Assembly: GCA_036867785.1 (NCBI GenBank)
Contig: CP145412.1
Span: forward strand, 124,001-188,000
Reading direction: 5' to 3'
DNA length: 64,000 nucleotides
Origin: Plasmodiophora brassicae
Lineage: Eukaryota
The number at the start of each line of letters is the position of its first letter. Position 1 is the stretch's first letter. Positions 5,946 to 36,934 of this stretch are shown one piece after another. The notes below the pieces were generated by a model. It was given only the letters and a program-made list of their open reading frames with translations, ran no database searches and was not told where the DNA came from. Made by a program: the position numbers and the translations under genes.

Positions 5946-5969
5946 CGGACACCGTGGCGGACTCCGTGA
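5946..5969 (+). promoter_or_regulatory. Tandem 12-bp-periodic CGGACWCCG motif upstream of RIT1
   Basis: CGGACACCGTGG CGGACTCCGTGA; the same pattern occurs upstream of IMP4, DDX21 and RPS14. Confidence 0.45.
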
Positions 5970-6039
5970 CAGGCCCAACATTGGTCACACCGGTCACGCC
6001 GCCGTAGCATGACTTAGGTCGACGCTACTGTAAGGGGCG

Positions 6040-7581
6040 ATGGGCATCATGTCTGATGTGCGGCGTGTGCGCCGTCAGCAGCATTCCCTGCTGAACCGGT
6101 TGCGATCCTGTGCGTCCGACGCCGATTTCGTGTCGGAATTTCACGCGGGGCACCTCAGTGGCCTGACGGTGTTCGCCAACCTGCGCCAGGGGCAATGGTA
6201 CACGCCGCCAGATGCGATGACATGTCACTTCAAATCCAGCGATGGGCACTGTGGTGCATGGAAGTTCAACCCACGTCGGGTTAACGTGCACCTTGTCGCC
6301 GAAGCTATTCGCGGAGGCGGGCTGATCATCGTGGACTCTACACGGAAAGGCAAACGCGTCCCTGACAGCTTCTCGAGAACAATTCCCATCTGGGCGACTG
6401 TTCTGAATCGCATCGCGCAACGGTACATTGCATATCTTTGTCGTTTGCTAGTTTGGACGTCCTTAACGAGTCGCGTAGGCGGACTGGCCGGGAATTCGAT
6501 ACTGGCCTGCATATGCACGGCTCTGTTTCTGAACGGGAGAAGGTCCTGGTCGAGGATCACATTGAGGAGTTCATATCTGTGGTCGTCAACAGCTGCTGCG
6601 ACCTGTCGGTTCTCGACCTGCTCACACGGCCGCTTCGTTGCATTTGGGTCGACCGATCTTCTGTATGGACAGATGTTCAGCATCGCGCGTTCAGCGAACG
6701 TTACCTGGCCGTTATCTGTGTCCGTACGTCAATTCCTGATCCGTGCAACTGAGCTGAGTGTCACGTGCTCATAGCTGACAACAAGTTTCTGCGAGAGTGA
6801 GGTGGCCCAACATGATCGTCAAGGTTGGCATTATATCCAAGGTGTGGTCTCGCCATAATGAGCCTTTGCTTGCTCAGTAACGTTGAACAGGTGCGGGGGA
6901 TGACCACGAGAACTGGTCAGGCAAGCTGACACCTTCCACGTTTGCGCGTCATCGTGGCTGGATCCTGTCCGCCGATTCCGATGAAGAATGCTTGCGACGG
7001 ATTGATGCTCTTGCCACTGAGGGCAATGGTCGTTCACTTGCCGGTACCAGCCTGGTGTCGATCGGTTCGACCGAGATCACCATTCGTCTCCATGTCGCGT
7101 TGTCGGTATTACCCACCGACGGCGCGACGGTGTTCATCTCAACGGGTGCTCTTTCGGATCCAGACGTCAGGTAATCGGCTAGCAACAAACCAAAGCTGGT
7201 CGTTGCTGAAGCGGTTGACATGGCAGACCGGACGTGTACGCTGTACACGTTTCTGACGTGAAAGGACGCCGCCCGTCCCTTGAGACTGCCCTGGGTGGCA
7301 TTCTGGACTTTTGCCTGCAATGGCCGACCGTTACCATCGCGTCTGATCGTGATGCTGTCCTCCCTGGGTGCGTTGCTGTTGCTATCCTGTCCCGTTACTT
7401 CACCGGGCTGGGTGACGAACTAAAGCGCGGCGCTCGTGGCGATGGTCCAGCACTCTCCAAGGAGCGCATCCGGCGTCATATCGAGTACGTGCAGAGGTTC
7501 ATTCCCGGGTGGAACCCGCCTCGATTCCTCGTCCAGCAACTGAATCGATTCTTCCTCGGGGATCCTGCTTTTCGTCACTGA
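6040..7581 (+). CDS. RIT1: tRNA A64-2'-O-ribosylphosphate transferase (initiator tRNA modification), multi-exon
   Basis: ANLRQGQWY..HFKSSDGH..W.FNPRRVN.H..GG.IIVDSTRKGKRVPDSFSRTIPIW is the Rit1 signature. C-terminal DUSP-like part ends NPPRFLVQQLNRFF. Start is ATG 6040 or 6049. Confidence 0.9.
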
Positions 7582-8108
7582 CAAGAGGACAGCGTTCCTC
7601 CCATCGGCATATTCGTCACACGTTGTGTCATCGTGACGGGCGCCTTGCGTCAGAAGCTTCCGGATACATGGCGACGAACAGAATCGCTGCAGACGCCCCT
7701 ATCGTCTTCACGAACTCCCTCCCCAACGGCGGACCGATTTGCTCTCTACACCCATGAAGAATTTCGCCAGAACTATTAGTAGATATATCGATGGCCATGC
7801 AACAGTTCTGTGTAGGATGTTGGCAAGTACGGAGAGTGCATAGAACGGGACGGAACGAAATGTGGTCGCGAATGACTTGTCGAGACGGCGTTGTAGCAGA
7901 AACCTGTCAGGTTGAAGGCAATACGCGGCGCTAACGACGGTTCAGTCGCTTCGGCACCCTAAATATGATTCAGGGAAGTTCGTCAAAGGTCAACTCTGCG
8001 GCCAGTCCTTTGGCTGATCAATGTAACGTCCTTTGCATGTCATCATCCGTCACTGAACGTCGATATAAAGTATCCACATGGCCAGAAAACAGTCATTTAC
8101 AAAGACGA

Positions 8109-8520
8109 TCAGCTGCTGGGAACGTAATCCGGGAAACAGTCCTCGAATCTGAGCTTGCCGTGCTTGTTCTGCTGGTGAATCTGCAAATCGCCCAGTTTGG
8201 TCGTGCACATGAAGACTTGGAGGCAGATCTATAAACAGTGTGACGCATCTCTAACTGGTGGATGCATAATTCGTTGGACCTTGCATTTGATGTTCATCAT
8301 CTTGGCCTTGTCTGCGAGCTGGCTGGAGCCACCCTTCTTGGCTTTTGCCTAACGATACGTCGTGAGAACGTGAACGAGCGGAACCATGCAACCCCATCAT
8401 ACAGCTTTTTCCTGGTTCCTTTGCCTCGACATCATTGTCTTGTTCGCATCTACACGGTCATGCCCAATGAGATTCACCGATTAGGGCGTCGCCACAGGAC
8501 GTCTTACTTCCACCACCCAT
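8109..8520 (-). CDS. Small At2g23090/ZNF706-like zinc-binding protein, 4 exons (absent from the ORF track)
   Basis: Splicing three GT-AG introns gives MGGGNANKTMMSRQRNQEKAAKAKKGGSSQLADKAKMMNIKCKICLQVFMCTTKLGDLQIHQQNKHGKLRFEDCFPDYVPSS*, with the family MGGGN start and C..C..F..H...KH..CFP pattern. Confidence 0.88.
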
Positions 8521-8594
8521 GGCGTCAATCGTAGGGCGCGGTTTGTCGCACTCGAGATCGCCACCGTTACGTCCGGAAGGATTGCCAGTTGCCA

Positions 8595-8618
8595 CGGAGT
8601 CCGCCGCGGAGTCCGTGA
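8595..8618 (+). promoter_or_regulatory. Tandem CGGAGTCCG motif in the ~133-bp bidirectional promoter of the ZNF706-like gene and IMP4
   Basis: CGGAGTCCGCCG CGGAGTCCGTGA, 12-bp period. Confidence 0.45.
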
Positions 8619-8653
8619 CGTCGTCGCGTCAGATCCTGGACGTCATCAGCACC

Positions 8654-9581
8654 ATGATTCGCCGGAATGCACGCCTGCGCCGCGAATATATGTACAGGAA
8701 GAGCCTCGAAGGCAAGGAGCGTGCTCTATACGAGAGGAAGAAGCAGGTCAGGAAAGCGCTAGAGGAGGGCACACGCATTCCTACGGAACTGCGCGGCGAG
8801 GAGGCCGACCTTCGTGCCGATCTGCAATTCGACGACGCTCTCACGGAAGGTTGTTGTCTCTTGCTGGATCAACACGTGCTCATCTGCTTATCAATTTGTT
8901 GTAGCCCCTGCGTCGAGTATTGATGACGAATACCGTCACGCGGGAATTCGTGACCCGAAGGTTCTCGTGACGACGTCGCGGAACCCTTCGTCTCGGTTAA
9001 CGCAATTCGCCAGCGAGATGCGATTAATGTTCCCGAACGCGCAGCGTATCAATCGTGGTGCCACGGTCGTAAAAGAGCTGGTTGACGCGTGTCGCTCTAA
9101 TGATGTCACCGACCTGGTGATCGTCCACGAGCATCGCGGTGAGCCGGATGGCCTAATCATATCGCATATGCCGTATGGGCCAACGGCCTACTTCAACATG
9201 ACCGGATGCGTCCTGCGACACGACATCAAGGACGCGAACCTGGGCACCATGTCAGAGGCGTATCCTCACCTGATCTTCGACCGGTTCGACACGCCGCTCG
9301 GCAAGCGTGTGCAGACCATCTTGAAGTACCTGTTCCCTGTACCCAAGCCGGACACCAAACGTGTCCTGTCGTTCGTCAACCGGAACGATTTCATTTCATT
9401 CCGACACCATGTCTACGAACGCCCACACGGCAAGGACGTCGAACTCAGGGAGGTTGGCCCCAGGTTCGAGCTACGCCTCTACCAGATCAAACTCGGAACG
9501 GTCGATATGAAAGAGGCCGAAGACGAATGGGTTCTGCGCCCGTACATGACCACCGCACACAAACGCAAAGCAATTGGATAG
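8654..9581 (+). CDS. IMP4: U3 snoRNP protein Imp4 (Brix domain), one intron at ~8850-8904
   Basis: MIRRNARLRREYMYRKS; DDEY..AG..DPKVLVTTSRNPSSRL; HEHRGEPDGL; ELREVGPRFELRLYQIKLGT. Confidence 0.96.
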
Positions 9582-9627
9582 TCTGCCGAATACACATCTC
9601 ACATCTGCGTAATTGTACATTCGTCTA

Positions 9628-10305
9628 TCAGTGGCGACGCAGGTGGAACACGTCGTTAGCGAGCTTGTTCGAGCATGCAGCGATCATGCAACGCCAGTTC
9701 AGGTCGTACGGGACGTCATCGTGAAGGTCACAAACGGCACCGTCTGCTTCAGTGATGATGAGAGCCGATGCCGCTTGATCCCAGGCACAGAGTCCATCCT
9801 CGAAATACACGCCAGAGAAGCCATTGGCGACTTGGACCAAGTTCATCGTCCCGATTTCTTCAGATCAGAGACGCGCGAAACTCGTAAGGGCGTTGGATTG
9901 CCCTGGCCGAATTGGACAAAGGCGCCTTGGCCTTTGACTGCCCAAACGAGTTTGTCCTGTGCAGGAGTGGCGACAACGATAAGCAATGGAACGCCGTCTT
10001 CGACCAACCCGACGCTGACGCCGAAATCGACAGGCCGTGCATGAAGTTCGTCATACTGTCGATGGCATCCACAACCTAAACGCGTCCAACGCGGCACTTC
10101 ATCGTAATCGGTCGAGGCAATCGGGACGGCTTTCTCCAACTAGCGAGTCATCCGGGTAATGATTCTGGGTGACATCGCGTATGGCATTCTCGTTCAGCAA
10201 GTCCCATTCGGTGGCGAGGTTATCCGATGCGGCCAGCTTCAGCTTCACATCTTGGACGTGTCGGCACCCTTGCAAGACAGTGTCACTTGCCACGCGAAAC
10301 GGCAC
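9628..10305 (-). pseudogene. Inositol monophosphatase family pseudogene
   Basis: HYPDDSLVGES, DAIDSMTNFMHG (canonical DPIDGTTNF), a 1-nt frameshift before FGVSVGL, AVKGQGAF, then a stop/frame change with the central segment apparently missing, then AWDQAAS (WD.AAG). Confidence 0.75.
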
Positions 10306-10740
10306 TGATGGCGACAGTCAGCCGATCATCAAGATCGTCCGCAATTGTTTGTGGCCACGAAACAATACTGATAACGGAGAAGGCGGCAATCGCCCTACCG
10401 GTATTGGACAAGGGCCCCATCACAAAATGGTTGACCAAGAGACTCGCTATGGCCACTGGTCACCCGGTGACTCGCAATATGGCAATGCGAAACAAACTAC
10501 GGGTCGTGATCGCGCCCTCCAAATAGGAGACAGCGCGGCGGCACACGGCTATAACCGGGCACGTAGCAAGCATGGGATAACAGCCGAGCTCGCAACCTCG
10601 CACATACCTGTACCGTCGTCCGTCCTGACACCACCGGCTGCCAAACGAACATCGCTTGATGCTGTTTTTAGATTACGAACAGCTGGCAGGACCACAAACT
10701 CCGCTGATCACTGGTGGCGCAACGTCGTCATTACGCCCAG

Positions 10741-12315
10741 ATGCTGCCCAGGCTGCAGTTGCTCTTCGTGCTGCTCTGGACGATAGGTTTGTGCACGTGC
10801 GATGACGTGAAGGAATCATTAACGGGAGCATTGATCCGGGCAACCTACAACGGCAATCTGCAAGCGGTAGCAGACTTGCTGAAGCGCGGAGCGCCTGCGA
10901 ACGGCAAAGACAATGCGGCGGTGATCTTGGCGTGCACGGCAGGGCACAAGGGCATTGTCGCACTACTTGTTGAGCATGGAGCCGACATAAGGGTTCATGA
11001 TGACGAATGTCTGGTCCGGGCCGCGGGCGCACCGTCCCTCGACCTGGTCAAGTACCTCGTCGAAACATTACGAGTGCCTGTCTCCGCCCAGTGCGACGAT
11101 CCGCTTATCGCCGCCACGGCCGGATCCCGCAGCCATATCGTCGAATATCTTCTTGACAATCGGGCCAACCCGGATGCGCGTAACGGCCTACCCTTGCGTA
11201 TTGCGAGCAGGTTCAAGCTGGCGCCTGTCTCCACATTACTCCTGAAGGCTGGCGCGACCCTGAACGAACACATCCTGGCCGAAGCTGTCGAAACCAACGA
11301 TATTCCCTTGGTCCGCCTTGCGCTTCAACATGGCGTGTTCGGTGGCGCTCTAGATGGGTCCCTTATGGTTGAAGCGTACCACTTGAACCATGACATCGTC
11401 TTGAATATGCTCGTCGAGAATGTGGCACCAACCGACGCCTGGGGACTGCCGGGTTTCCTGGAAAATGTCGGGCACCCTGATCCAGTCGTCCTAGTCCGGA
11501 TTCTGAAGCACGACAAAGTCTCGAGAGGCGGCGTGATCCGAGCCATGGAATGGGCGGTTTTGCTGCAGAACCTCGAACTGCTTCGTGTGGTTCTGGACAA
11601 CATCAACGACAATTTTCGATGCGATATCGCGCGTGACATCGCGCTCCTTAATGTCGATAACGTATTAGACGGGGGCACTAACGATGACGTATCCGCTGTT
11701 CTCCGTCATCACCTTCTGTTGCCTGTGGTCAAGACAGCTTGCACGAGTACCGGCGACCTGACGGATGTCATCACAGCAGTGGCCGCCTTCGAATCAAGGC
11801 GAGCTTCTGCTGAGCACGTCCTCGCAACGGCACAAAAGGCGGCCAGTTTGCAACAGGTCGACCGCAACATTGACAGTCAGAGCTCCAGTAGCATCGGGGA
11901 CGTACTCGCCAATATTCGGAAGCCGGATGCGATCCAAGACTTGACAGTGGTCCATAGAGAACCAGCAATACGAACGGAATGCCATTGTTCTGATCCGCTT
12001 TCACCTGTCAAACGAAGCCAAATTGTACATGCGAATCCACCCTCTGACGCATCCCCACCTGCTGACCATCTCGATTCCCTATCACCGGTTGTACTGATGG
12101 GAGGTACCGACCATGAAGAGAAATTACCGGATCCCTGGAGAAAAACGACCCGGTCGCGTCGCTGGAAACCGTATCCACCGAACGATTTATTACGATCCAG
12201 ATGCTTATGTCAGGGGACACCTGTGTCGCCTAGTGCCTCCATACCTGAAAAGGGCGTCCAGAGCAGAGATCCGCGACGACGTCGCGAAAAGAATAACATA
12301 CGGCCGTCTGTCTGA
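10741..12315 (+). CDS. Secreted ankyrin-repeat protein (candidate effector), single exon
   Basis: Signal-like MLPRLQLLFVLLWTIGLCTC. Ankyrin repeats (ALIRATYNGNLQAVADLLKRGA, LACTAGHKGIVALLVEHGAD, etc.). Basic disordered tail (RSRRWK, RRRREK). Confidence 0.85.
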   Translation: MLPRLQLLFVLLWTIGLCTCDDVKESLTGALIRATYNGNLQAVADLLKRGAPANGKDNAAVILACTAGHKGIVALLVEHGADIRVHDDECLVRAAGAPSLDLVKYLVETLRVPVSAQCDDPLIAATAGSRSHIVEYLLDNRANPDARNGLPLRIASRFKLAPVSTLLLKAGATLNEHILAEAVETNDIPLVRLALQHGVFGGALDGSLMVEAYHLNHDIVLNMLVENVAPTDAWGLPGFLENVGHPDPVVLVRILKHDKVSRGGVIRAMEWAVLLQNLELLRVVLDNINDNFRCDIARDIALLNVDNVLDGGTNDDVSAVLRHHLLLPVVKTACTSTGDLTDVITAVAAFESRRASAEHVLATAQKAASLQQVDRNIDSQSSSSIGDVLANIRKPDAIQDLTVVHREPAIRTECHCSDPLSPVKRSQIVHANPPSDASPPADHLDSLSPVVLMGGTDHEEKLPDPWRKTTRSRRWKPYPPNDLLRSRCLCQGTPVSPSASIPEKGVQSRDPRRRREKNNIRPSV

Positions 12316-12469
12316 TTCGTTTACTGGTCGGCAAAGGCTGCACGATGTACAGTGCATCAAATACAGCGAATCCCCTTTGAATAACGATTAACTGTTTGTA
12401 ACTGGCAACTGATAACGGCGCGATAAACCAGATGATGAGTGATCATCATGCAAGCTCGGACAATCTTAT

Positions 12470-12826
12470 CGTGGTGCTTTGGTGGCACCCGCTGGATGTC
12501 TATCAAGTTCTCAATCTGCCAGCATTTCGGTGAACATGTTTGAGTAAATGCCACAGACGCGGTAGTGCATGGCTCTCAGCTACCGCGTTAACAATTCCAG
12601 CGACCCTATCTGCGATATCATCCCGCCGATCGAATACGAGCACATCGGCCACCAAATCCACCTGGGACAGAAAGACTGGTTCCCTGACGTCCCGATGCGC
12701 TTCGATATCTGGGCCCACGCCCACTGGAACTACGTCAAGAACCTCATCGTCCCTGATTCGGTCAAGCGCGGAGCAACAGATGCTGGTGCTGACTTTCGTT
12801 CATGCGGCAGCGACGAAACTCGATGA
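12470..12826 (+). pseudogene. Possible class-3 lipase C-terminal remnant
   Basis: YRVNNSSDPICDIIPPIEYEHIGHQIHL..H..NY resembles the lipase_3 RV.N..D.V..LPP..Y.H.G..H..Y segment. No GHSLG half or start codon found. Confidence 0.4.
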
Positions 12827-13194
12827 CACCGCGTTAAGGATTGCCTCTGGTGTTTGAGTTTCGACGTCGACGCCGACGTACGTTTTCGACGTCATGATGC
12901 TTGTGTTCAACGGCTATTTGTTGCGTGTTGGGGATTACAGAAGGGACTTATATGGCCTGTATTAACGTGGAAACAGCGATTAGCTCACTGATCCGGTAGT
13001 TGGAGCAGCGTTTGGCTGCTCCAGCAAATGATTCCACCTATAACGTTATAAGGCAGGGGGTATGGTCACAGCGGGGCCGAAGCTAGCGGGTGCCTTCGTG
13101 ACTTCGGCGATGTGGCGTGTCCGTGCTCGTATTGGGTGTTGCCGGAGGCTGCAGGGACGCTGATGCACTCAGCACGACATGGAGGATACTGTGG

Positions 13195-13500
13195 CGATCA
13201 TCCCGGCTTGGACCAGAAACACGACTACCTGTTCACGTCATGATGTCACTAGACTCATGAACTGCGTCGTTCCACGTCTGCTGAATCGCTACAACACGTC
13301 CAGTGACCGCGTGAACACCATGAACAGGCCTCCCCGGATCCAGCGTCGATCCACGCCTCCCGACCAAGTGCAAACGTCTTGCAAGAGCGGATTCAAACGA
13401 CGCGCTCAGCTCAGCCCGTGCTCGACGAGCCATCTCACGAAATCCCCTCGCCGCATCGTTAAAGGCAAGCTGTTGCATCGGAAGCCCCCGCATCGCGGCG
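13195..13500 (-). pseudogene. Possible decayed ankyrin-repeat fragment
   Basis: Stop-interrupted frame GDFVRWLVEHGLS*..PLL and GTTQFMSLVTS*REQVVVFLVQAG resembles ankyrin repeats. Confidence 0.3.
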
Positions 13501-13867
13501 TCATTTGTACGCTCGACAAAGATATTCCTGGAAGAATCCACACAGGAATCTGACCGTCTCGCATCAACGTGGAACCGGGTGGACGAACCACGCCTTGCGC
13601 CTGCAATTGCGGCTGCGACCTTACTCTGCTCCCGCTCGCCATCTCTATGTACGATCCCCGCCTTGCGATCCAAATATAAGATCGCGCTCTGGCATATTCT
13701 ATTCCTGGGTGGGGCGGTTGTCGGGGCCCCAAATTCCCACGATGGCCCCAGTCCGTCTGACTGGGCACTGTGGGCAGCGCACGGAGTCCGTGAGCCCAAT
13801 CTAGCGCCCAAACGGCCCGGGGTTGCAGCGATGAAGCCATTGCGTTAATTGTCGTTTGCTGGCAACG

Positions 13868-14527
13868 ATGACGTTCCAGCTGAACGGTTGTGCACTTCTG
13901 CTGGCCGTGGTCGCATCGACGCTCCTGGTTATCGATGCATGTGGTGGGGTTGCGCCCGATACCGCGTGTGACGATAATCGAGCTGACCCCAACGTTACCG
14001 CGTCTGACGATGGTGCTGGCCCCAGTACCGCGCGTAGCGATGAAGTTGACCCGAGCGTCCCCCGTCAGCCTGCACGTCCCCGCATGAAGATCGCATCCTA
14101 TATGGATCTTCCCCCTGGCGTGTGTCACTATGCCCAGGACGACCTATATCTATGCCTGGAACATCCGAACGGCCATGGTTTTTTCAAAGACCTGTGGAAC
14201 TCGGTCGATCGCATACTCGGTCGAGATCCTGAATGGGTCCGCGAGATACATGAGCGTCGCCGACCGGATCCGACACCGACTGCTCGTTATGAACCTGAAT
14301 TGGTAACTGGCTATAAGCCGTCACCCTACGCCCGTAGTGGTGAGTCGTTTCTTTCGCGCCTGCCGGTGGTTGGCACCTTGCTGCAACGGCCCCCTGAGGT
14401 CCTGAGGTGCGCCCACTGCTTGTTCTCGTGTGCGACCCCGCAGTGTTTTCGCAGACACATAATAAGGAGCCACCCCGACAAGATAAACGACGCCAAAGCT
14501 TGCCAGCCCATCGCCTCCCGTACGTAG
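13868..14527 (+). CDS. Small secreted protein with C-terminal C2H2 zinc finger (candidate effector)
   Basis: Signal-like MTFQLNGCALLLAVVASTLLVIDA; C-terminal CAHCLFSCATPQCFRRHIIRSH. Confidence 0.7.
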   Translation: MTFQLNGCALLLAVVASTLLVIDACGGVAPDTACDDNRADPNVTASDDGAGPSTARSDEVDPSVPRQPARPRMKIASYMDLPPGVCHYAQDDLYLCLEHPNGHGFFKDLWNSVDRILGRDPEWVREIHERRRPDPTPTARYEPELVTGYKPSPYARSGESFLSRLPVVGTLLQRPPEVLRCAHCLFSCATPQCFRRHIIRSHPDKINDAKACQPIASRT

Positions 14528-14696
14528 ACTTCGCGTTTCGTCCATGCGTCGTTTTCCGGTTTGCTAAAGTGCCCAGAATAAATCCCACCCCACGTTTCCC
14601 CAACACTAGCCGGATTGGCAGCCACAACCAGAGGCCTATTGTCGAGTAGAAATACGATATGTACGCTTTGTAGTTGAGCGATTCAGAGCTACCTGG

Positions 14697-16475: not shown

Positions 16476-16773
16476 TATGTGTGACACACGGGCCTCGGTC
16501 GCGCGAATCGCACACATGTGCCCATCACATCCACCAGCGCAGCGACGCACTCCCCGTTGACACAATGCCCGTGACAACTCATGAATCACGAGGCGTCACG
16601 ATCAGCAGCTCCCCGCGGTTTTTGTCGTCTGCAGTCTCTGGCGTTACGTGACGCGTGGCGCAGTGCAATACACCGCGCGCGGACGTCCGTGCCGACTGCC
16701 GCGGGGGGCAAGTCCGTGGCGCGGCTGGCGCCGGGAAAGGCCGTGGGCGGCGGCGTCAATTCGGTCGATCGCG

Positions 16774-17943: not shown

Positions 17944-17983
17944 ACCGTCGCCCGCTGCTGCTGGTTATTTATACACGACGTCG

Positions 17984-18175: not shown

Positions 18176-18255
18176 ACCTGCAGCAAGGCGTCCTCGTCGT
18201 CTGTGACCGCTTGGCGCGAAGCGGGCTGCGACAGCGACGTTCGCCGCCCGCCAGG

Positions 18256-25733: not shown

Positions 25734-28700
25734 ATGTCCTTGTCGCTCAGCGCGACCGATGATACCGCTGCCCCGGATCGTCTCAGCGCCGAACCCATTT
25801 GGGAAGGATACCTTATGAAGCAGGTGCGGTCGGTCCCCGCCGTGAACGTCGCAACGGTGTCCTCATTCCACGTAGGGCGGTGCTCGCGGTGGGTTCAAGA
25901 ACTGGAAGAAGCGCTGGTTCCGCTTAGACGCCGAGAACCTGTGCTACTACAAGGAGCGACCGCGAGCGCCGACCGACGCCAAATCCAACGATGCCGACAC
26001 GTCGAGCAGCATTGCCGAACCCGCCGTCCTGGGCGTCCTCCCGATTCGCAACGCGACCATCGTCGACCTGCGTAGGACGGCAGGGAACCACCTCCGGCCC
26101 GCGGCCATTGATAAATGCTTCCACAGAGGGCGCCGACGATGTCGCCGTGAAGGCGGTCGAACTGCCACCGGCGTGGGACGTCGGCGCGACCGCCTGCCAT
26201 GACTGCAAGAAGGAGTTCAGCGGTAGCGTTCGCCGCCGGTTCTGCCGGGCGTGCGGCCTGGCGCACTGTTCGCCGTGCTCGCCGCGGTCCGTGTTGCAGT
26301 CGCGGATCGGGTTCGCCGAGCCGGTCCGCGTCTGCAACTCGTGCTTCAACGGCATCACGTCCGCCGGCGGCTTCAAGAACGCCGATGGCGGCAGCCGGCT
26401 CGACGACGGCATCATCATCGTCCAGACCGAGCAGAAGAAGAGCAAAGGTGGCGCGTCTCGGCGTCCTGCGTTTCGGGGGCCGTTGACGAACGCGTTGCAG
26501 GGTTCGAGTGGCGGTCGAAGAAGCACCTGTTCATACTGAATTCGGCCGAGCTGCAGATGTACCTGCAGGCGGAGACGAGCACGGTCAAGCTAGAGGTGAT
26601 GACGGCGATCCGGAGCGTCGTCCTGTACCATCAGCGCAAGGCGCAACGGGCGACGACCGGGTCGGCCGTCACCGTCGCGGAACCGGAATCCAGCAACAAC
26701 CGCCCGCATAAGCTCGACAGGCAGATGTCCGCCTCCAGCCAATGGAACATCGACTTCAAGGCCATCAAGATCCTCCATGAAATCGGGGAAGGGTACCGGA
26801 TTCGGGTATGTCCCCTGACACGCATCGGCGTTCTAAGAACGTAACGCACAGGTCGACCGGGATGGTCTACAAAGGTCGCCTGTGGGGGACCGATGTCGCC
26901 GTGAAAACGATCAGGAACGCCACCATGGCGGATGACCTTCAGAAAGAGGTGGCCATCTTAAGCCAGTTGCGGCACCCGAACGTTGTCCTTTACATTGGGG
27001 CGTGCCTGGAGAAGCCGAACGTCGCCGTTGTCACCGAATGGTGCGATCGAGGGTCGCTCTTCGACCTGCTCTACGACGATTCCCCGGGCTGCTGCAACCT
27101 CGACTTCCAATCGATCATCACGATCGCTATCGGGATAGCGCAGGGCATGAACTACCTGCACAGCCTGAACCAGAAGATCATCCACCGCGACCTGAAGTCG
27201 CACAACATCCTCATCGATTCGCATTTCACGCCCAAGGTCGCCGACTTTGGCCTGTCCAAGGTCAAAGAGCCGACGCGCCTGGGCGACAACATCGACCCGC
27301 AGATCGTCACCGAATCGCTGGCGATCGGCCACCAGAAAGCGCTGCGAGCGCACGCCGCCGCCAAGAAGAAGGCGGCAGAGGATTCGAAAGAGGCCCAGAG
27401 CGAGGTCGGCGCGATATGCGATTCGCCTGCGCGTTGGCACTGACACCACAGCAGGTCCCTGGTGGCACGGCGGAATGGATGGCCCCCGAGGTGATGGAAG
27501 GGGCCCCGTACAACCAATCCGTCGACGTGTACTCGTACGGGATCGTACTGTCAGAGTAGGACGCATGCGGGCGCGCGCGACGAAACACGAACCGGGGCTG
27601 ACCGCCCCATGATCGTGCACAGGTTGCTGTCGCGACGGTTGCCGTTCCGCGACAAGTACACGATAACGGGCTACGCCGACGTCGTCGAGGCCGTGCTCGA
27701 CGACGGCGCCACGCCGACGATCCCGGAATGGTGTGGCGCCAAGATGCAGAAGCTCGTCGCCGACTGCCTCAGCAGGAACGCGGAGGCGCGCCCGACCTTC
27801 AACGAGATCATCCTTCGCCTGCGCAGGTTGGGCGGCGCGTCGTCCCGCCCGCCCGCCTAATCGTGATGATGACGCGCCTGGCAGTTTCTACCCGCTGGAC
27901 CCGGCCGACGTGTTCCAGAAGTTCGACATCCCCCGGCTGCTGTCCATGCTGGACAGCCCGGATCGTACCGAACAGTTCCGAGCCGTTCGCGAGCTATCAG
28001 GTGACGCGGACGCACACGGTGCTGCCAGGAACGCTGACCTAACGACCACCTGGGCAGACATGGCCGTCGACCTGACCGACCTCTGCCACGTGTGCGGGCA
28101 CACGCCGCTGAAGTACGCGCAGATGGGCGAGGCGACCGTCGTCAAGTTCGTCGCCCGCCTGACGACAATGTTGCTGTCCCCGCATGCCGACATCGTCAGT
28201 GCGATCCGCTGTCGCGTCGTCGCTGTGCAACTGACCGGGGGCGACCCTGAAGATCCAGCATGCGATGCTGGCGCTGCGTGCCATGATCGACGAGAGCGAG
28301 GCGGCGCTGCGCCCGACGCTCTTCGGCGCCATTCGGGAGTCGGGCGGCGTCCAGCGGATCGCGCTGCACCTGAAGTCGGACAAGGAGGACATGGCGAACG
28401 CGGCCGCGCTGCTGCTGTCTCGTATCATCGCTGACCCCGGCACGGTCGACAACCCGGCGACGCTGATGGGCCTGTCCCCCGAGGTCATGGCCGAACTGCT
28501 GGCCATTGCCAAACAGGAGGTGGGGCCGGCAACCCGTTCGCGCGTAGTAAAGCAGACGACTGACGCAACCGGCCGTGTTCAGGTATCGACGCTGAAGAAG
28601 AAGATCGAGGGCAACGAGGGGTCGCTGTCCAGGAAAGTGGAACTGTCGACCTGGATATCGAACCGGCTGCGCCAGGCCGAGTTCGGCCTGAGCGACGCGC

Positions 28701-29344
28701 AGACGGCGCTGGCGTCGATTGCAACGCCGAGAACCATCATCGCCAACGTGGCGTCCCCGTCACCCGTACGCGCGCGCGCGCTTGGCGTTCCAACCCGCGC
28801 TCCGCACCCTGACAACGTCCTAGGAGGGCGGCTCGTTCGAAGGCAAGGACCTGCCCGTTCAGCTGCGGGCCGAGATGGGCCGCGGCGCCCAGTGCTGGGG
28901 CTGGCTCGGGTTACTGGACCCGGCCGGCGAGCAGTGGATCGACGTCTACGCCGTGCTCCGCAACGCCACCATCTGCATCTTCGACAGCGAGGAGTCGCGA
29001 CCGGAGACCATTCGGTGCGTTTGTTGCCTCGCTGGCTGGGTTCGCCGGCAGCGGGACCCCCGCGTCTAAACTGGACCGGGCACAGGTACATTATTCGGAT
29101 CCGCCTCGGGAACGTGTCCGCCAAGTTTCGTGCCGGGCGGAAGCGCGGCCGGCACAACTGCCTGCAGATCGCCCTGTCCCAGGAGCTGCTGCCGGTGGCC
29201 GTCGACCCGAAGACGCCCCCGATCCGCCGCGTCTTCATCAACGTCGGGTCGCACGAGCGGTTCGCCTTCTGGGTCAGGCACATCAACGAGCACCTGGACA
29301 TACCCGTCCCGCTGGACTTCGCGCCGGACGAGACCATGACCTAA
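25734..29344 (+). CDS. TKL-family protein kinase with N-terminal PH and FYVE domains, ARM-like region and C-terminal PH-like domain, multi-exon
   Basis: WEGYLMKQ..FKNWKKRWF (PH); CHDCKKEF..RRRFCRACG..C..CS..RVCNSC (FYVE); IGEG|STGMVYKG, VAVK, LRHPNVV, HRDLKSHN, DFG, GTAEWMAPE, DVYSYG, RPTFNEI (kinase). Confidence 0.88.
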
Positions 29345-29414
29345 CTGAGCGTGGCTCGCCTCAGTCCCCCATATTACCACTGAAGCGAACGACACTGGAA
29401 CGGGTGTGTAATTA

Positions 29415-30815
29415 TTAGGCCAGGAGATGCAGCGTAACCGCAATGACGACCATCGGGACCCAGTTCGACTGCGGGCCACGGCTCGGCACGGCGTGAGACA
29501 CCTGTTGCTCGCCTGCTGCCGGGGACGTCGTCTCCTCGGCCCCTGCTGCCGGGGACGTCGTCTCCTCGGCCCCTGCTGCCGGGGACGTCGTCTCCTCGGC
29601 CACTGCTGCCGTTGCCGCCCCCTTCCTCGGCTCCCAATCCGCGTCCTGCAGCGTGGCGTCCTTCTTCGAGAAACGGGAGATCGTGCTGGCCAGGTCGCCG
29701 TCGCTGGCCACATCAGCAGCGGTCCTGCCCTGTCGATCCTCCACGTCCACATCGGCGTCCAACGCCAGGAACTGCTCGACGACGACGCCGCGTCCATTGT
29801 TCGCCGCGTAGTGCAGGGCCGTCCATCCCATGTGGTCGCCGAACTCGATGAGGGCGCCCGCGTCCAGCAACGCGACCAGGACGTCGACATGACCGTGGCC
29901 GGCGGCCAGATGCAATGGCGTCTGCCCGCGCTCGTTGGTCGCATCGACCTGAGCACCCGCCGCCAGCAGCCGCTGTACGACGGGCACACAGTTGACGCGG
30001 GCGCTCTCGTGCAAGGCGGTGTACCCGTCGGGGTCGGCCCCGTCGATGGCACCGGCGGGGACCGCGTCCAGAAGCACGGCAGCGGCCTCGTCGTGGCACA
30101 TCATCGCCGACAGGTGCAACGGCGACGCCGTGAACCCTCTCACGTACGTCGTTGCGGTGTCGCCATCCAGATCGGTGACGGTCAGCGTCGTGAACCCGAC
30201 GGGCCATTCCGTCGTCGGCGAGCGCCTGCGCAGGATCAGGCGAAGCAGGTCGGGGGACTGCCGGTTCCAGATCGCTAATAGGAGGAGGGTGTCGAGGTCC
30301 CCGGCGCCGGCGTCCAGCAGGATGCCAACCACGTCCGCGTGACCGCGCCAAACGGCCAGATGGGCGGCCGTGTTCCCGTACACGCAGACGAGGTCGATGG
30401 AGGCGCGGGCGTCGACCAGGAGGGCGACGATGTCGGCGTGGCCGCCCGCGGCAGCGTAGTGCAGAGCGGTGTACCCGTGGCGGTCCTTGGCATCGAGGGC
30501 GGCGCCCTTGTCGATGAGGACGGCGCACGCGTCGACGTGACCGTTGCCGGCCGCGAAATGCAGCGGCGTGAGGTTATCGCTGTCGCGGTCGTTGATGTTG
30601 GCGCCGTTCCCAATCATCATCTCGATGGTCTCGACGCGTCCCAGCTCCGCCGCTAGGTGTAGGTGTAGGCCTCGCAGGTTGCGGGCGGGGATCGACTGCA
30701 ACCTCTGCTCCTGCCTGTCGACCCGAGCGGCATGGTCGTCGTCCAGCACGGTGCCGACCGCGACGCTAATCACCAGCACGGACAGCCATAACGCCGACGC
30801 CTTCATCATCGTCAT
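29415..30815 (-). CDS. Secreted/surface ankyrin-repeat protein with hydrophobic C-terminus, single exon
   Basis: Signal-like MKASALWLSVLVISVAVG; about 9-10 ankyrin repeats (TPLHFAA, TALHYAA, TPLHLAA); AEETTSPAAG x3; C-terminal WVPMVVIAVTLHLLA. Confidence 0.9.
   Translation of the reverse strand: MTMMKASALWLSVLVISVAVGTVLDDDHAARVDRQEQRLQSIPARNLRGLHLHLAAELGRVETIEMMIGNGANINDRDSDNLTPLHFAAGNGHVDACAVLIDKGAALDAKDRHGYTALHYAAAGGHADIVALLVDARASIDLVCVYGNTAAHLAVWRGHADVVGILLDAGAGDLDTLLLLAIWNRQSPDLLRLILRRRSPTTEWPVGFTTLTVTDLDGDTATTYVRGFTASPLHLSAMMCHDEAAAVLLDAVPAGAIDGADPDGYTALHESARVNCVPVVQRLLAAGAQVDATNERGQTPLHLAAGHGHVDVLVALLDAGALIEFGDHMGWTALHYAANNGRGVVVEQFLALDADVDVEDRQGRTAADVASDGDLASTISRFSKKDATLQDADWEPRKGAATAAVAEETTSPAAGAEETTSPAAGAEETTSPAAGEQQVSHAVPSRGPQSNWVPMVVIAVTLHLLA
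29512..29611. repeat. 30-bp coding tandem repeat, 3 perfect copies plus a partial
   Basis: Unit CCTGCTGCCGGGGACGTCGTCTCCTCGGCC, encoding AEETTSPAAG. Confidence 0.95.
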
Positions 30816-31085
30816 GGCGATCGGATACCAGATTGCGCTTCGTTACGCGCCTGGGGGGACGGGACAGGGCGCGCGCGCGTCCGCCACTGTGGCGGGCCGA
30901 GCGCCGACACAGCCGCAGGCGACGTCACCCGGTAACGTCGCCCGCCCGCGGAAATCATCGCCGCGTCGTTCAGGCGCAACCGTCGACAGTCGCAGCCGCC
31001 TGCAGTTGCGCGACTGGGCCGCGACAATTGCGCCAGTCGAGGCGCTGCACTGGGGCGCTGCAGTTCATTTTGCCCAATCCGCATC

Positions 31086-33294
31086 ATGGCACGGTCCATA
31101 CGTCATCGTCATGCAGCGGGCGCGGTCGGGGCGGTCGTCGTCGCAAGCCGCGCCACAACGAAGGCGACGGCGGCGGTGGCGGGCGGCGTTGCCGTGGCGT
31201 GGCGCCCGGCGCTGATATGCTTCGCGTCGGTGCTGGCGTTGTACATGGCGACGATGTCGCCGACGATCACGGGCGGCGATGCCGGCGAGCTGGCTGCGGC
31301 CGCATGCGGGTCGTCGGTGCCGCACCCGCCCGGGTACCCCACGTTCGTTGTCCTGTACGGCTCGGCGTTCAGGCTGTTGCAGAACGCCAAACCTGCATTG
31401 CTGTTCAATGCGTTGTCTTCTCTGATCAGCGCGTCTGCCGCTGCGATCCTTTTTATTGCCGTCCAACAGGCGTCCGGATCGACGGACTGGAAAGGGCCCA
31501 TGACGGCCACCTTCATGTTCGCGTTTTCGCCGACGGTCTGGACGTATGCTACGCAAACGGAAGTCTTCCCGTTGAACAATTTCTTCCTTGCAGTGCTTCT
31601 CTTGGCCACCGTATGGCTGTCATCGGTAAGGGTGACCGTTGATGACGACGTGGTCCCTTGCTGACTGTGTACCACTATTGCGTTACAGGATCCGAGCCCG
31701 CGAAACGTTGTGCTATGCGCTTTCGTGTGTGGACTAGCGTCCACGAACCAACACACGATTGTTTTATATATTCTTCCGACTGCGCTGGCATTTATTTGCC
31801 TGGAGCGTCGTCTTCGGTGGCCACTCACGCTAACGAGCATTGCGGCCGCGTTCCTTCTTGGCCTACTGCCGTATGCCTTTCTGGTTGCGGCGGCTGGGAG
31901 ATATCGCTCATGGGGTGACACAAGCAGCCTGGCTGGAGTGATGACGCACGTTTTCAGGGAGGAGGTAAAGTCATGCCTATGTAGCGTTCCTGACGTGTTC
32001 TGATCAGTTTCGGCAGTATGGCACGTTTCGCCTTGCAAATGAAAACGTTGACGCTGGAGTTCCATTCCTGGCCCGCCTCACGTTTTACTTTAGCGACTTG
32101 CTGACGCAGTCGTCTTTGGTGGCGCTGCCGCTGGCACTGTACTGCATCCTTGTCGATAGGCGGCGCCTGATTCGGATCGTGGTTGCGGCGTTTGCGTTTT
32201 ACGTCGTCTTATTTACCATGTTGAACAACATGGCCGTTCAGTCTCCGCTTCTTCTGGGCGTTCAGCAACGATTCTTCATGCAGCCGTTTGCCCTGGTTTG
32301 TTTCCTTGTCGGCGTTGGAATTCACCATATTCGCAATCGAAACGTATTATCGCCGTTCCTCGTGGACAACTTGATAGTTGCTTTCCTCCTTGCGCACGTC
32401 GGTCGTCCGTTCCTGCAGCAGATTGCAATTCGCACCGCTCCTGCCGTCGTCGACATCCATGCGCGATCCGCCCTGACAAGCATGCCTGAGGGCAGCATTG
32501 TTCTGGCCACCGGGGACCTCATCGTTCACCCAATGCTCTACCTACAAGCCTGTGAACGCGTTCGCCCCGACGTGCGCGTCATCGCTGTTCCAAACATGAT
32601 CTCCACCTGGTTTGTTGAACAGCAGTCGCGGTACTTCCCTGGGGTCGTGTTCCCCGGTCTGTATATGCATGGCGGCTTCCCGGGAGGATTTACTGCACGG
32701 GATTTCCTTGACAGTAACGTTGACCGGGCCCCTGTGTTTACCTGTGGAGGATTGCCACCGGCCCCTGGCGAGGACCAAAGCGCACTGAAGCGCGATTTCC
32801 TGGCATGGCCGATCGGCATTTGCTCTCGGATACTGCGTCCAACAGAGAAGCCGGCGAATTTGACAGCATATTTGGGGACGGCTCTGAGCCTGCTCGATGT
32901 CGCACTATTTGGCATGGGATCCTCACAACTGTACGATGCCACCTCCTGGGAGTACGATGCGTTCAGACATGTTTGGCTACGTCGTGCACTGCTGTTTGAA
33001 CACGCGTACAACATCATCTTCCCAAACTATCTCGAGGAATCGTTGTTGCGGATTGCTGCTGACCTCGCCGACCGCATCGTCGACGGATGGCGCGCGAAGG
33101 AACGCTTTGCCAGACCCGATTCCAACTTCTGGAAACAGGCAGCCGACGTGTACGGGCACCTTAGCGTGATACAACGCCATCCGTACGAAGATCGAATGTT
33201 CGTAATGTTTGAGTCTGCCCTAGATGCGGACCCGAACGACCACGTCATCGCCGAGGTCGTTCGAGGTCGGCACAACCCGTACCGTAATCGGTAA
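31086..33294 (+). CDS. TMEM260: TMEM260 / DUF2723 protein O-mannosyltransferase-like membrane protein, multi-exon
   Basis: PTITGGDAGEL..A...VPHPPGYP; FAFSPTVWTYATQTEVFPLNN; GLASTNQHT; SWGDT..HVFREE|YGTF.L; YLQACERVRPDV. Confidence 0.9.
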
Positions 33295-34067
33295 AGGTAA
33301 TGTTCAAATAAACGTGCCTCGTCATAGCTGCCATTGTGCGATGAACCGAAGTTGCCCAAGCGGTCGTGCCTCAATAGACATTCACGCCACAAACGAAAGT
33401 AAACATCCCTATGCTAGCAAGCCCTGGCGTCGGGGTGCCTGGCTGTCCGGCCACGACGTCCTTCCTGCTTGCGTCGTGATGACGTAATTCTGCCTGCGTC
33501 GCTGGACTTCATGGACGAGCTCAGCGACGCCGAGCGCGAAACGGTGATCGCGGTCGCGCGCGCAGCGTTCGCCGGGGAACAGACGCGCAGACACTGTATT
33601 CGACCAAATTGCTCCATTGTCAGGTTCGGGCCCCCCTGAACGTGTGTTCCCAAGTCAGGCCCTCACAGGATCATCAGTTTGATTAAGGAGCCAGCGAATG
33701 CGAGAACGCAATGGGTCTGAACGTCGTTCTTCCCCGGCAACAGCCAACCCCGAAGGTCTCGATTGACGATACCCCAGCCGCGACGACAACAAAGCCCATT
33801 ACTCTCGATCTCAAATAATTGGACAGACCCGGTTTGCCGGTCAGGCGCCAGCTGGTGCGTGGTGGCGTTTCAGCCCGAAGAAGTCGAGCTGCCGCCCAAG
33901 CTCCAAGATCAGATGTGTCTTGGCGAATGGAAGCAGTAGTGGGCCCGATACTTCCAAGAGGTGGCGGTGACGCGCATCGACGCTTCCGTATAGCTGATGA
34001 CAATCGCGTAAAGCTGCCGCAGCTTCTGCGGCGCGGTGTCCCGCTTCTGCGGGGTCCGGCCGCTGCG

Positions 34068-34112
34068 CGGACAGCGTAGCGGATTGCGCCACGGACACCG
34101 TGACGGACCCCG
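34068..34112 (+). promoter_or_regulatory. Four 12-bp-periodic CGGA-NN-SCG units upstream of the DDX21-like gene
   Basis: CGGACAGCGTAG CGGATTGCGCCA CGGACACCGTGA CGGACCCCG, ending 10 nt before the ATG. Confidence 0.45.
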
Positions 34113-34122
34113 GATTCCACTA

Positions 34123-36306
34123 ATGGCGGGCGTTCGTAAATCTGATGACGGCAAGGTCTCGACTAAGAAATCGAAGAAGTCGTCCAAGACGTCTGAACAT
34201 GACCCGTCGCTGACGAACGGAACCAGCTTGACGGCGACGAAACCGTCGAAGGAAAAATCGCGCAAGTCGGAGTCCGACTCTGACAAGAAGGCGAAGAAGA
34301 AGAAGCGGTCGCGCGAGAACGACGACGAATCCAAGGCTGTTGACGCGGACGCGCCAAAGAAGAAGACGAAGAAGGAGAAGAGCGCACCCAAAGAAGACGC
34401 CGGTGATGCTGTTCCGGAGAACGCCGTCTCCCGGTTCCGGATCAGTCCGGCCAACGTGAAGACGCTGGCTGCCCAGGGCATCACGTGTACGTCGCCCCAT
34501 TGCCCTGCATGACTGCCGCTTATTCCTCGCCCTCTTAGCGCTGTTCCCTATCCAAACGAACACGTTCGACATCATTTACGACGGTAACGACATCATCGCG
34601 CGCGTATGTCCCTGAAGTTCCTTGCGTGCTTTCACAATCGCTTATGGTTGTGTTTCAGGCCAAGACGGGGTCAGGAAAGACGCTTGCCTTCGCGTTGCCT
34701 GTCGTGGAGCGAATCCTGGCGAACGATGACGGGGGTAGGCGCCGTCCGGGCCGCGGTCCCCAAGTCCTGGTCGTTGCACCGACACGCGAACTCGCCAAGC
34801 AGGTCGCCACCGTTTTCGAATCCGTCGGCCAGGGCCTGCAGACCCTCACCGTCTACGGCGGTGCACCGTACCAGCCACAAGAGAACGCCATGCGACGCGG
34901 CATTGACGTCCTGGTCGGAACGCCCGGCCGGATCAATGACTTTCTCAACAAGCGCCAGTTCCTGCGATTCGACAACCTCGACTACGTCATCCTCGACGAG
35001 GCCGATGAGATGCTCAACGACGGCTTCGCCAAGGACATTGAAGCGATCCTGTCGGCCATCGGCGATCGCCCCACCCAGAAGCTGCTCTTCTCGGCCACCA
35101 TCCCCGACTGTAAGTCGGGTCCCATTCGCCGTACCGTCTAGGGTTCTGATCAATCGCCGTCCCCCAGGGGTGGAGAAGGTCGCCAAGAAGTACCTGTCGC
35201 CGGACAAGGTCGTCGTCGACCTGATCCAGGCGAAGATCTCGACGAACCCGGACATCACGCATTACCAGATGCCGGTCTACTGGACCGAGAAGCACAAGGT
35301 CATCGGCGACTGCGTTCGCCTGTATGCCAAGGACGGGCGCACGATCGTCTTCGCGCCGACGAAGAAGGAGTGCAACGAGATGGTGGTCGACACGCGTTTC
35401 GCCCTCGAAGCGCAGGTCCTCCATGGCGACATCTCGCAGGCGCAGCGCGAATCGACGCTGAAAGGGTTCCGCGACGGCAAGTTTAAGGTGCTGGTCGCCA
35501 CCGACGTCGCCGCTCGCGGCCTGGACATCACCGGCGTCGACCTGGTCGTCCAGTCGGAGCCGCCGCCCGACCACGAGACGTACGTGCACCGGTCAGGGCG
35601 CACGGGGCGGGCCGGCGCCAAGGGCATCTCGATCACGCTGTACACGCCCAGGCACGTGTTCTGGCTGCAGCAGATCACCAGGAAGGCCAGGGTCGACTTC
35701 AAGATCCTCGGGTGCCCGCAGCAATCCGACCTGATCGGGGCGGCCGTCGGCGCGTCCGTCGAGGCCGCCCGCGCCGTCCTGCAGTCGAAGCACACGATCC
35801 ATCGCGACTGGCGCGCCGCCGCCCGCGACCTGGTCTCCGCGTTCGACAACGACGCGGAGAAGGTCGTCGCCGCCTGCCTCATGGCCGCCAACGGCGGGGT
35901 CACCGCCAGCGGTTCCATGCCGTCGTCGCTGCTGACCGGCCAGTCGCAGTACGTGACGGTGTCGGTGACGTCGCAGCGCGGGCGTGTCTTCGGCTCCGGA
36001 CAAATCTTCAACCAGTTGCGGCAGCACTTTGACGCCTCCGTCGTCGACGCCGTCAAGAACATGCGCATGCGCGCCGACCAGGCCGGCGCCGTCTGCGACC
36101 TGCCCGTCGAGTGCTACGCCGAGGTGGCGGCCCTGCCGGAATCCACCGGCATCGCCCTGGCCACCACCCTGCCCGATATCGTCGAGAAGGCCGACATGCC
36201 GCCGCCGGCCCGGGGTGGTGCCGGACGGTACAGCCGGGGATCCGGCGGCCAGTCCAACGGGAACGGCCGGTACGGGCAGCGGAATCAGTGGAACGGTCGC
36301 CGATGA
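34123..36306 (+). CDS. DDX21: Nucleolar DEAD-box RNA helicase, DDX21/RH7 type (GUCT domain), multi-exon
   Basis: Lys-rich N-terminus; LFPIQ, AKTGSGKT, PTRELA, GTPGR, DEAD, SAT, LHGDISQAQRE..L..FR, YVHRSGRTGRAG; GUCT-like region and RG tail. Confidence 0.9.
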
Positions 36307-36456
36307 TTTCGATCCCAGTACAATACATTGTCAGAGCTTGTCCCGAAACTGGATACACAACCTATACGTTGCTACGACAGGACCAGCAACACGACGTGGC
36401 GTTAGTGGGTAGACAGGTAGTATGTATGGATTGCAGTGACGACGTGTTTGAGGAAT

Positions 36457-36894
36457 TTAGAGACGGCGACCGCGACGGCCACCCTTGGCGCGGGTGCTGT
36501 CGGTCGGGATCGGCGTGACATCCTCAAGGCGGCCGATCTTCATGCCGTTACGGGCCAGGGCGCGCAGCGCGGACTGTGCGCCCGGGCCGGGCGTCTTCGT
36601 GCGGTTGCCACCCGTGGCGCGAAGCTTGATATGCAGGGCGGTGATACCGCGCTCCTTGCACTTGGCGGCGACGTCCTGGGCGGCAAGCATGGCGGCGTAC
36701 GGCGACGCCTCGTCACGGTCGGCCTTGACCTTCATGCCGCCCGTAATGCGGATGATGGTCTCCTTGCCCGACAAGTCGGTCACGTGGACGAACGTGTCGT
36801 TGAACGACGCATAGATGTGCGCCACGCCGAAGATCTCCTCGCCATCGCGCTTCGTCGGGCCGTAGTAGACGGCCTCTTCCTCCCGCTTCGACAT
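36457..36894 (-). CDS. RPS14: 40S ribosomal protein S14 (uS11), intronless
   Basis: [57 protein letters not shown]. Confidence 0.98.
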
Positions 36895-36910
36895 GATTGC
36901 GGCACTGACC

Positions 36911-36934
36911 ACGACGGGTCCGCCGCGGACTCCG
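36911..36934 (-). promoter_or_regulatory. Tandem 12-bp-periodic CGGA motif upstream of RPS14
   Basis: Minus strand reads CGGAGTCCGCGG CGGACCCGTCGT. Confidence 0.4.

Follow-up and report, generated by a model that had tools for sequence, protein, structure and literature searches.

An alternating RCGGA/TCCGY array upstream of ribosome-biogenesis and ribosomal protein genes of Plasmodiophora brassicae: a likely regulon element

Are the ribosome genes of Plasmodiophora brassicae marked by a promoter word in common? The question is raised by a stretch of 64,000 nucleotides of its genome (assembly GCA_036867785.1, contig CP145412.1, positions 124,001 to 188,000, or G000:C4:124001-188000; referred to here as the window), in which CGG-rich units follow each other at 12-bp intervals just upstream of the genes of a tRNA ribosyltransferase (RIT1), a Brix-domain protein, a DDX21-like helicase and ribosomal protein S14 (RPS14). 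A sequence-only reading of this DNA had proposed the units as an element of a ribosome-biogenesis and ribosomal protein regulon. Here, we followed this proposal through the genome (G000; 25.3 Mb in 20 contigs), and we are confident that the array is a functional regulon element.

The strings quoted in that reading are all found, at 5946-5969, 8595-8618, 34068-34112, 36934-36915 (minus strand) and 13782-13793, and the gene labels given to the four main sites agree with Pfam. A two-unit RCGGA/TCCGY array (5945..5967, 21.5 bits) lies 73 nt before the ATG at 6040 of the RIT1-family gene, the first open frame of which (6040..6774, plus strand) matches Rit1_C (E=2e-45). The Brix-domain gene (8654..9581, plus strand; Brix, E=3e-25), which from its N-terminus we take to be IMP4, is preceded at 38 nt by a perfect two-unit array (8594..8616, 24.9 bits). 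Before the DDX21-like gene (34123..36306, plus strand; Helicase_C and GUCT) there are indeed four units in 12-bp register, of which the first two are degenerate and the other two good (34067..34112, 22.5 bits), and the distance to the ATG is 10 nt. The RPS14 (uS11) gene on the minus strand (5' coding stretch 36700..36894; Ribosomal_S11, E=5e-14) has a three-half-site array (36915..36935, minus strand, 24.9 bits) 20 nt from its ATG at 36894. The window has a GC content of 59.8%, and CGGANNCCGNNNCGGANNCC with up to two mismatches occurs in it 20 times, as against 5.2 +/- 2.2 times in 100 shuffles, none of which reaches 20. Window matches of at least 10 bits comprise the four reported sites and three weaker ones, at 4445 (kinase coding sequence), 15338 and 36463.

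The element can be described as a series of RCGGA half-sites whose direction flips with each step of 6 bp, the unit being RCGGASTCCGY, and the 12-bp period arises because the half-sites point alternately right and left. In 71 oriented sites the column counts follow R-CGGA-S-TCCG-Y-S-R-CGGA-S-TCCG-Y, with the consensus RCGGASTCCGYSRCGGASTCCGY. Genome-wide, the tandem CGGANNCCGNNNCGGANNCCG gives 99+105 strand-matches (204) and its reversed control 0+0, while two looser tandem patterns, with each site listed once, give 58 vs 2 and 76 vs 6. The single unit occurs 612 times as compared with 114 for the reversed control. The earlier proposal of an inverted CGG-N3-CCG site is therefore right as to the enrichment of the inverted register but too narrow, since the everted register TCCGYSRCGGA is enriched as well (359 vs 119 in the control), which indicates an array of alternating half-sites. 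Most arrays have 2-4 half-sites, and exact in-register extension past four is rare (9 and 7 of 122 sites). An excess of about 500 units, part of them paired, would correspond to a few hundred promoters. Exact units are also found in pairs about 21 bp, or two helical turns, apart (G000:C1:963026/963047, C1:1154969/1154990, L310 and L324), possibly a second preferred spacing.

Sites numbering 135 were fetched among the matches listed, a partial set of the tandems, with other-spacer matches on C9-C20 left out. Inside long ATG-started frames were flagged 33 of the 135, many of these frames being antisense shadow frames; three degenerate matches (L110, L123 and L136) resemble chance coding hits. 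Twelve sites lie within one repeat of about 343 bp that starts with TG, ends with CA and is flanked by 5-bp duplications. Loci of this family are L077:1337-1679, L078:1337-1679, L022, L032, L048, L095, L096, L102, L109, L129 and L132, as well as L305. The copies at L077 and L078 do not differ from each other and delimit a single element; next to L077 is a frame with integrase and chromo domains, and the repeat is presumably a long terminal repeat (LTR) of the Ty3/gypsy-like kind. The same region also contains an inverted repeat of 1.2 kb and a gag-pol frame of the copia type. An array of at least five units at L114:1490-1560, near a Ty3-type gag frame, resembles a stretch in L032.

These copies bring up the idea that the array is nothing but a dispersed repeat, a string produced in coding sequence by four-residue repeats, or a general GC-rich promoter word. 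It would account for the 12 LTR sites and the array near the gag frame, for the window match in kinase coding sequence, and for a metagenome pattern scan with 106 matches, of which the 80 listed all fall within open frames of at least 151 aa, mostly on GC-rich contigs; none of those 80 resembled a relative, as judged without Pfam typing. However, no flanks shared among the other 122 sites were seen by eye, and blastn of the LTR locus against the genome loci fetched gave matches confined to the LTR set. Since the host copies are without LTR flanks, the LTR is not their evident source, and capture of a host site by the LTR is the simpler reading. The repeat explanation is further contradicted by the target enrichment and by the background counts given below, so that we regard it as practically discarded.

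The genes that flank the array were typed at 120 sites (the 135 minus 12 LTR and 3 window sites) by a Pfam scan of the two best open frames per side; the same treatment was given to 93 fixed anchors placed in 310 kb of unselected DNA. Self-trained coding models were weak and were applied solely to rank open frames. Pfam families that we ourselves class as specific to ribosome biogenesis, tRNA maturation, translation or RNA polymerase I (Pol I) were found at 55/120 sites and at 5/93 anchors (p=7e-12). When generic DEAD/DEAH helicases and architecture-based calls are included, the numbers become 73/120 and 7/93 (p=1e-16). Among the families are POP1, Bystin, Rio2, Utp10, Rpp40, Krr1, Rrp12, Nmd3, AARP2CN, Esf1, Nrap, eIF6, Brix, Csl4, CBF/Mak21, Nog1, Grn1, Gcd10, Gcd14, Utp14, Dis3, Nol10, TmcA/Nat10, Thg1, Bop1, RsmB/F, Sda1, DNA_pol_phi, Slx9, Nopchap1, Prmt3, Fcf1, Fcf2, Tsr1, PDCD2, AATF, SBDS and Pol I A49. 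In a second pass Ipi1 (E=2e-4), RPB12, CBF and Sas10 came in as well, and weakly Elp5; the first four were kept out of the 55 since the control had no second pass. Further targets look, from their N-termini, like RRP9, SQT1, RSA4, YTM1, NSA1, SYO1, ACL4, UTP20, PRP43 and RAN. The regulon proposed from the window is thus borne out by the enrichment at tandem-site targets.

The converse approach starts from genes chosen by family. A 17-mer matrix was trained on 68 sites of genes other than ribosomal protein genes and applied, with a cut-off of 8 bits, to promoters up to 150 nt from the ATG. Thirteen genes of ribosomal proteins or small nucleolar ribonucleoproteins (snoRNPs) were taken, two of which, RPL18A and RPS14, came from the background and the window, respectively. 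Left out were a weak L7Ae match at L288, where no motif was seen, and five KOW rows of genes other than those of ribosomal proteins (L291, L292, L294, L295 and L296). At least 8 bits were reached by 12/13 of these promoters and by 21/2046 background windows (p=4e-22), or by 11/12 without RPS14, which belongs to the finding itself. The strongest background matches precede Noc2, a GTP_EFTU gene (EFL1-like by eye), RNase_PH, a TFIIB-repeat gene, RPL37 and a DEAD helicase; a further strong match precedes a glutamate 5-kinase-like gene, and another has no label. Among the five ribosome-linked background anchors, four have a unit or a match of at least 8 bits. With 0 tandem matches in the 310 kb of background DNA, so few background windows at the cut-off and no more than 612 single units in 25 Mb, the array is not a general core element present at all promoters.

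The same matrix bears on two single copies that the sequence-only reading had counted in. The strings are there, but their scores fall under the 8-bit level, which is reached by 1% of background windows. One, 75 nt 5' of the open reading frame 13868-14527 (plus strand; hydrophobic N-terminus, C-terminal CxxC..H..H finger, without Pfam match), scores 2.2 bits with the three-half-site matrix (13781..13791); as an exact 11-mer unit it is uncertain as a member rather than excluded. The other, a one-mismatch unit just 5' of the minus-strand ATG of a gene whose N-terminus we take, without Pfam scan, for SMU1 (43804..43813), reaches 7.8 bits and is likewise an uncertain member. Within the regulon, perfect tandems are found chiefly at ribosome-biogenesis genes, while ribosomal protein genes usually have 2-3 half-sites together with a second site, TTAGGGC/TATA, so that the membership claimed at first needs refinement in this respect.

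At the 71 typed sites the first ATG lies 2-103 nt downstream of the array (median 28), and for roughly one site in four the distance is 20 nt or less. Several arrays are located between divergent genes. That the units stand in gene orientation means little, because the unit is quasi-palindromic and the spacer orientation is free (YGR 39 and YCR 29 of 68 oriented sites, p=0.27), although the central S, read along the gene, is more often G than C (89 vs 48, p=6e-4). Four contig sets, presumed to be RNA, were aligned to 33600-37600; such contigs carry no expression level. In all four the DDX21 introns (34487-34538, 34604-34658 and 35110-35167) have GT..AG joints. In three of the four, DDX21 contigs start at 34127, 34129 and 34135 and left-hand contigs stop at 34041, 34072 and 34030, leaving the array essentially uncovered, a weak hint that it lies just upstream of the transcription start.

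An element so near the start could instead work as RNA, as a hairpin or protein site in the 5' untranslated region co-regulating translation or decay. The short distances in a quarter of the typed sites would suit this, as would the fourth contig set (run X4), which spans one array. Yet both orientations are in use, the array also precedes non-coding hosts of small nucleolar RNAs (snoRNAs), the DDX21 array is uncovered in the other three sets, and just 21/66 tandems have complementary bases at the two central positions, which means that there is no hairpin selection and argues against an RNA hairpin. We consider the RNA explanation very improbable. Because of the free spacer orientation, the lack of hairpin selection, the sites between divergent genes and, weakly, the contigs that fall short of the DDX21 array, the array would rather act as DNA, near the transcription start.

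Action as DNA is compatible with a further possibility, namely that the array is a class-specific core-promoter element that sets the start of constitutive growth genes and relays no growth signal. Homol-D, TCT and M1BP sites are class-specific core-promoter elements. The tight position, the G lean and the start of DDX21 contigs 15-23 nt past the array all fit such a role. Homol-D, which lies within 100 bp of the ATG, mediates initiation (PMC4138321). An upstream factor site is, on the other hand, in keeping with the free spacer orientation, with half-site numbers that vary and with arrays that divergent genes share, and the core-promoter role on its own appears rather unlikely to us.

The second site is typical of ribosomal protein promoters. 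TTAGGGC-N8-TATA lies upstream of the RPS14 array (36948..36966, minus strand; G000:C4:160948-160966), and TTAGGGC or a one-base variant is present, usually 7-10 bp from TATA and in either orientation, in RPS14 and in 10/10 tabulated ribosomal protein promoters, as against 0/2 promoters of snoRNP proteins (SNU13 and NHP2). Genome-wide, TTAGGGC-N7-10-TATA has 166 matches vs 11 for the control, a few sites being counted twice. Near typed tandem sites TTAGGGC was found at 3/71, all three ribosomal protein genes, and was absent from 68/71. We sampled 20 more TTAGGGC/TATA sites, the first-listed on C1-C3. Ten have an array of at least 8 bits; among the genes behind these, Pfam identifies a ubiquitin fusion, RPL24, RPL35 and RPL19, while RPL34, RPS5 and RPL6 were recognised by eye. 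One of the other ten belongs to RPS20 (by eye) and has two exact units; the remaining sampled sites had no Pfam match in about 300 nt. Since half of the sampled sites lack an array at this level, the second element also occurs alone, and it is the pair that marks ribosomal protein genes. An identical 20-mer of the composite occurs at at least five places (G000:C3:500913, C5:566882, C5:778434, C6:1262152 and C7:535537), which suggests that a repeat carries it.

The pair of elements is also found at non-coding hosts. Candidate box C/D snoRNAs lie behind promoters of the ribosomal protein type at L003 (1327-1403, minus), L039 (about 1990-2060, plus), L128 (about 1650-1720, plus) and L311 (107-183, minus). 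Those of L003, L039 and L128 contain perfect 13-14 nt guides to the organism's own small-subunit (SSU) or large-subunit ribosomal RNA (3/10 candidates), while guides of at least 11 nt were found in 1/186 background segments. In Rfam, L003 matches snoR38 (E=0.0045) and L311 a different C/D family (E=0.029), though neither reaches the gathering score. At L005 (plus), L020 (plus), L133 (minus) and L147:9556 (plus) both elements form a promoter of the ribosomal protein type with no snoRNA or protein call downstream, and L319 and L322 likewise have such promoters with no protein or RNA family call downstream; these six may be further non-coding hosts. At L147:9663-9750 there is a near-perfect hairpin.

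Which way would the array act? A repressor site, silencing the regulon in resting spores or under starvation, has a model in the yeast elements PAC and RRPE, which repress the same target set via Dot6/Tod6 and Stb3 (PMC5416754). In P. brassicae, however, the array is also at nearly all ribosomal protein promoters tested, it is part of an LTR, an element that would presumably profit from an activator site, and no other common motif was seen by eye at the ribosome-biogenesis promoters, where no de novo motif search was made. We lean, with some reserve, towards an array that activates more than it represses, and hold the repressor alternative to be improbable, if still worth keeping in view.

CGG triplets in pairs, inverted, direct or everted, are favoured by zinc clusters (PMC10954478), and the genome has 31 Zn_clus matches. 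In 10/15 loci examined (L062-L076) two clusters about 20 residues apart are encoded in one open frame, and 24/27 clusters keep the lysine at the position that we take to be Gal4's CGG contact. Searches of the Atlas returned fungal Zn_clus clusters, under 0.9, and searches of the PDB Pho7, Hap1, Gal4, Put3 and Cep3, matches that serve for family assignment only; homolog searches with two Zn-cluster proteins returned only themselves and no close relatives. Several of the L062-L076 proteins have a downstream motif in common, and the family is expanded. A unit of 10.7 bits precedes the two-cluster gene L067 (G000:C11:593038) at a distance of 130 nt, a lead, and no more, towards feedback. The Zn-cluster genes at C6:107-109 kb were rejected as partners of the site C6:111114, which serves a Sas10/Utp3 gene, with another gene between; a unit noticed near a Zn-cluster locus precedes RPB5. 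That the binder is a Zn2Cys6 protein of any kind is a prediction that we would put at slightly under even.

Taken together, the RCGGA/TCCGY array before ribosome-biogenesis, ribosomal protein, tRNA-maturation and some snoRNA-host genes is a likely double-stranded DNA site, through which one predicted CGG-reading Zn2Cys6 factor would co-activate a growth regulon. Each CGG triplet would be read by one zinc cluster, so that a two-cluster protein could cover one 11-bp unit and two proteins the 12-bp tandem; factor binding may be cooperative. Ribosomal protein and snoRNA-host genes would gain output via a second, Tbf1/telo-box-like factor. A more daring version is that a single-chain two-cluster Zn2Cys6 protein, of a family thought to be fungal, is, in this rhizarian, the master switch for ribosome biogenesis, ribosomal proteins, tRNA maturation and snoRNA hosts, with a Tbf1/telo-box-like partner on the ribosomal protein and snoRNA subset, and that the LTR family, by capturing the site, tied its own transcription to growth. 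No zinc-cluster protein is known to us as a master regulator of ribosome genes, and this version, taken whole, we regard as a doubtful though coherent one.

Several observations weigh against the co-activated regulon proposed here. About a third of the tandem sites are without a ribosome-linked label, and some targets are non-ribosomal, namely AdoHcyase, a Ras-family gene, DDX23 and a glutamate 5-kinase-like gene (by eye). RPL26 is the sole miss among the 13 chosen promoters (3.7 bits), though bearing an exact unit, and the background IPPT gene has no unit, by eye. No CGGA array was found at the three U3 copies examined, out of four, nor any strong site in about 3 kb upstream of the SSU ribosomal RNA (best 8.0 and 8.9 bits). 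Some ATGs are so near that the arrays before them may be transcribed; the central S has its strand lean, and the X4 contigs run across the DDX21 array. Finally, nothing singles out one Zn2Cys6 protein among some two dozen candidate genes, and other protein classes read CGGA too.

Two of these points have observations of their own beside them. The array precedes AdoHcyase at L277:4469, the glutamate 5-kinase-like gene at L276:8946 and a Ran-like GTPase gene at L098:1501, which suggests that growth-support genes belong to the regulon. The U3 copies L326, L327 and L328 (G000:C10) have about 80 nt upstream in common, in which a conserved block lies around -70 and an AT-rich box around -35, a promoter of the small nuclear RNA type without the CGGA array.

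If the proposed regulon is true, no promoter code at the level of a regulon would have been described before for a plasmodiophorid, so far as the literature searched shows. In the open-access literature searched, no description of this array or of any plasmodiophorid ribosome-biogenesis motif was found; an early P. brassicae gene-structure paper is said to discuss initiator elements. Since P. brassicae is an obligate intracellular parasite, a sequence handle on it is valuable. For binding tests in vitro the array supplies a defined probe, together with a limited number of candidate factors. It marks genes without annotation as likely ribosome factors, helps to find snoRNA hosts and to fix start codons, and defines a gene set for reading growth versus dormancy in existing RNA sequencing data.

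How does the array compare with known systems? In yeast, PAC (GCGATGAGMT, bound by Dot6/Tod6) and RRPE (TGAAAAWTTTY, bound by Stb3) likewise serve a ribosome-biogenesis regulon, which numbers a few hundred genes (Pol I subunits, processome, helicases, exosome and tRNA enzymes) and lie up to about 150 nt from the ATG (PMC5416754). In P. brassicae, by contrast, one arrayed element stands in place of two, ribosomal protein genes are included, and the position is nearer the ATG. The PAC and RRPE consensus is not matched by the array column counts; the two were not separately scanned for in these promoters. The holozoan E(CG)/Myc signature is also one motif tight to the start, with a near-identical gene list (BYSL, ESF1, IMP4, NAT10, PNO1, RCL1, RRP12, SDAD1, PRMT3, CEBPZ and MYBBP1A; PMC2570694), but it is a basic helix-loop-helix E-box with a CG core, whereas our consensus has no E-box and consists of CGG triplets in alternating 6-bp steps.

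Fission yeast Homol-D resembles the array in that it is common to genes of ribosomal proteins and of box C/D snoRNAs and lies no more than 100 bp from the ATG (PMC4138321); its core AGTCAC, however, is not matched, and Homol-D controls U3, which in P. brassicae has no array at the copies examined. Fungal Zn2Cys6 sites (Gal4 CGG-N11-CCG, Hap1 CGG-N6-CGG, Leu3 CCG-N4-CGG and Pdr3 CCGCGG; PMC10954478) have in common with the array CGG triplets, inverted and everted pairs and fixed spacing, and differ from it in that here the spacing is N3 in both registers, the sites are chained into arrays and the candidate proteins often carry two clusters per chain. In plants, the telo-box AAACCCTA pairs with site II/TEF on promoters (PMC3022908), a two-element code at ribosomal protein and snoRNA promoters like the one described here, although our partner array is neither site II nor TEF. 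The second element, read as GCCCTAA, matches the core RCCCTAA of the fungal Tbf1 site ARCCCTAA (PMC5416754, PMC4138321), while its coupling to a TATA 7-10 bp off, with the two flipping together, sets it apart from the telo-box and Tbf1.

The array thus appears to work like PAC/RRPE, E(CG), Homol-D and site II/telo-box without a sequence match to any of them, and only the second element matches the Tbf1 core. In a comparison made hitherto of yeasts, animals and plants, Rhizaria would add the same gene set with yet another word, and the telomere-like second site would recur at ribosomal protein and snoRNA genes.

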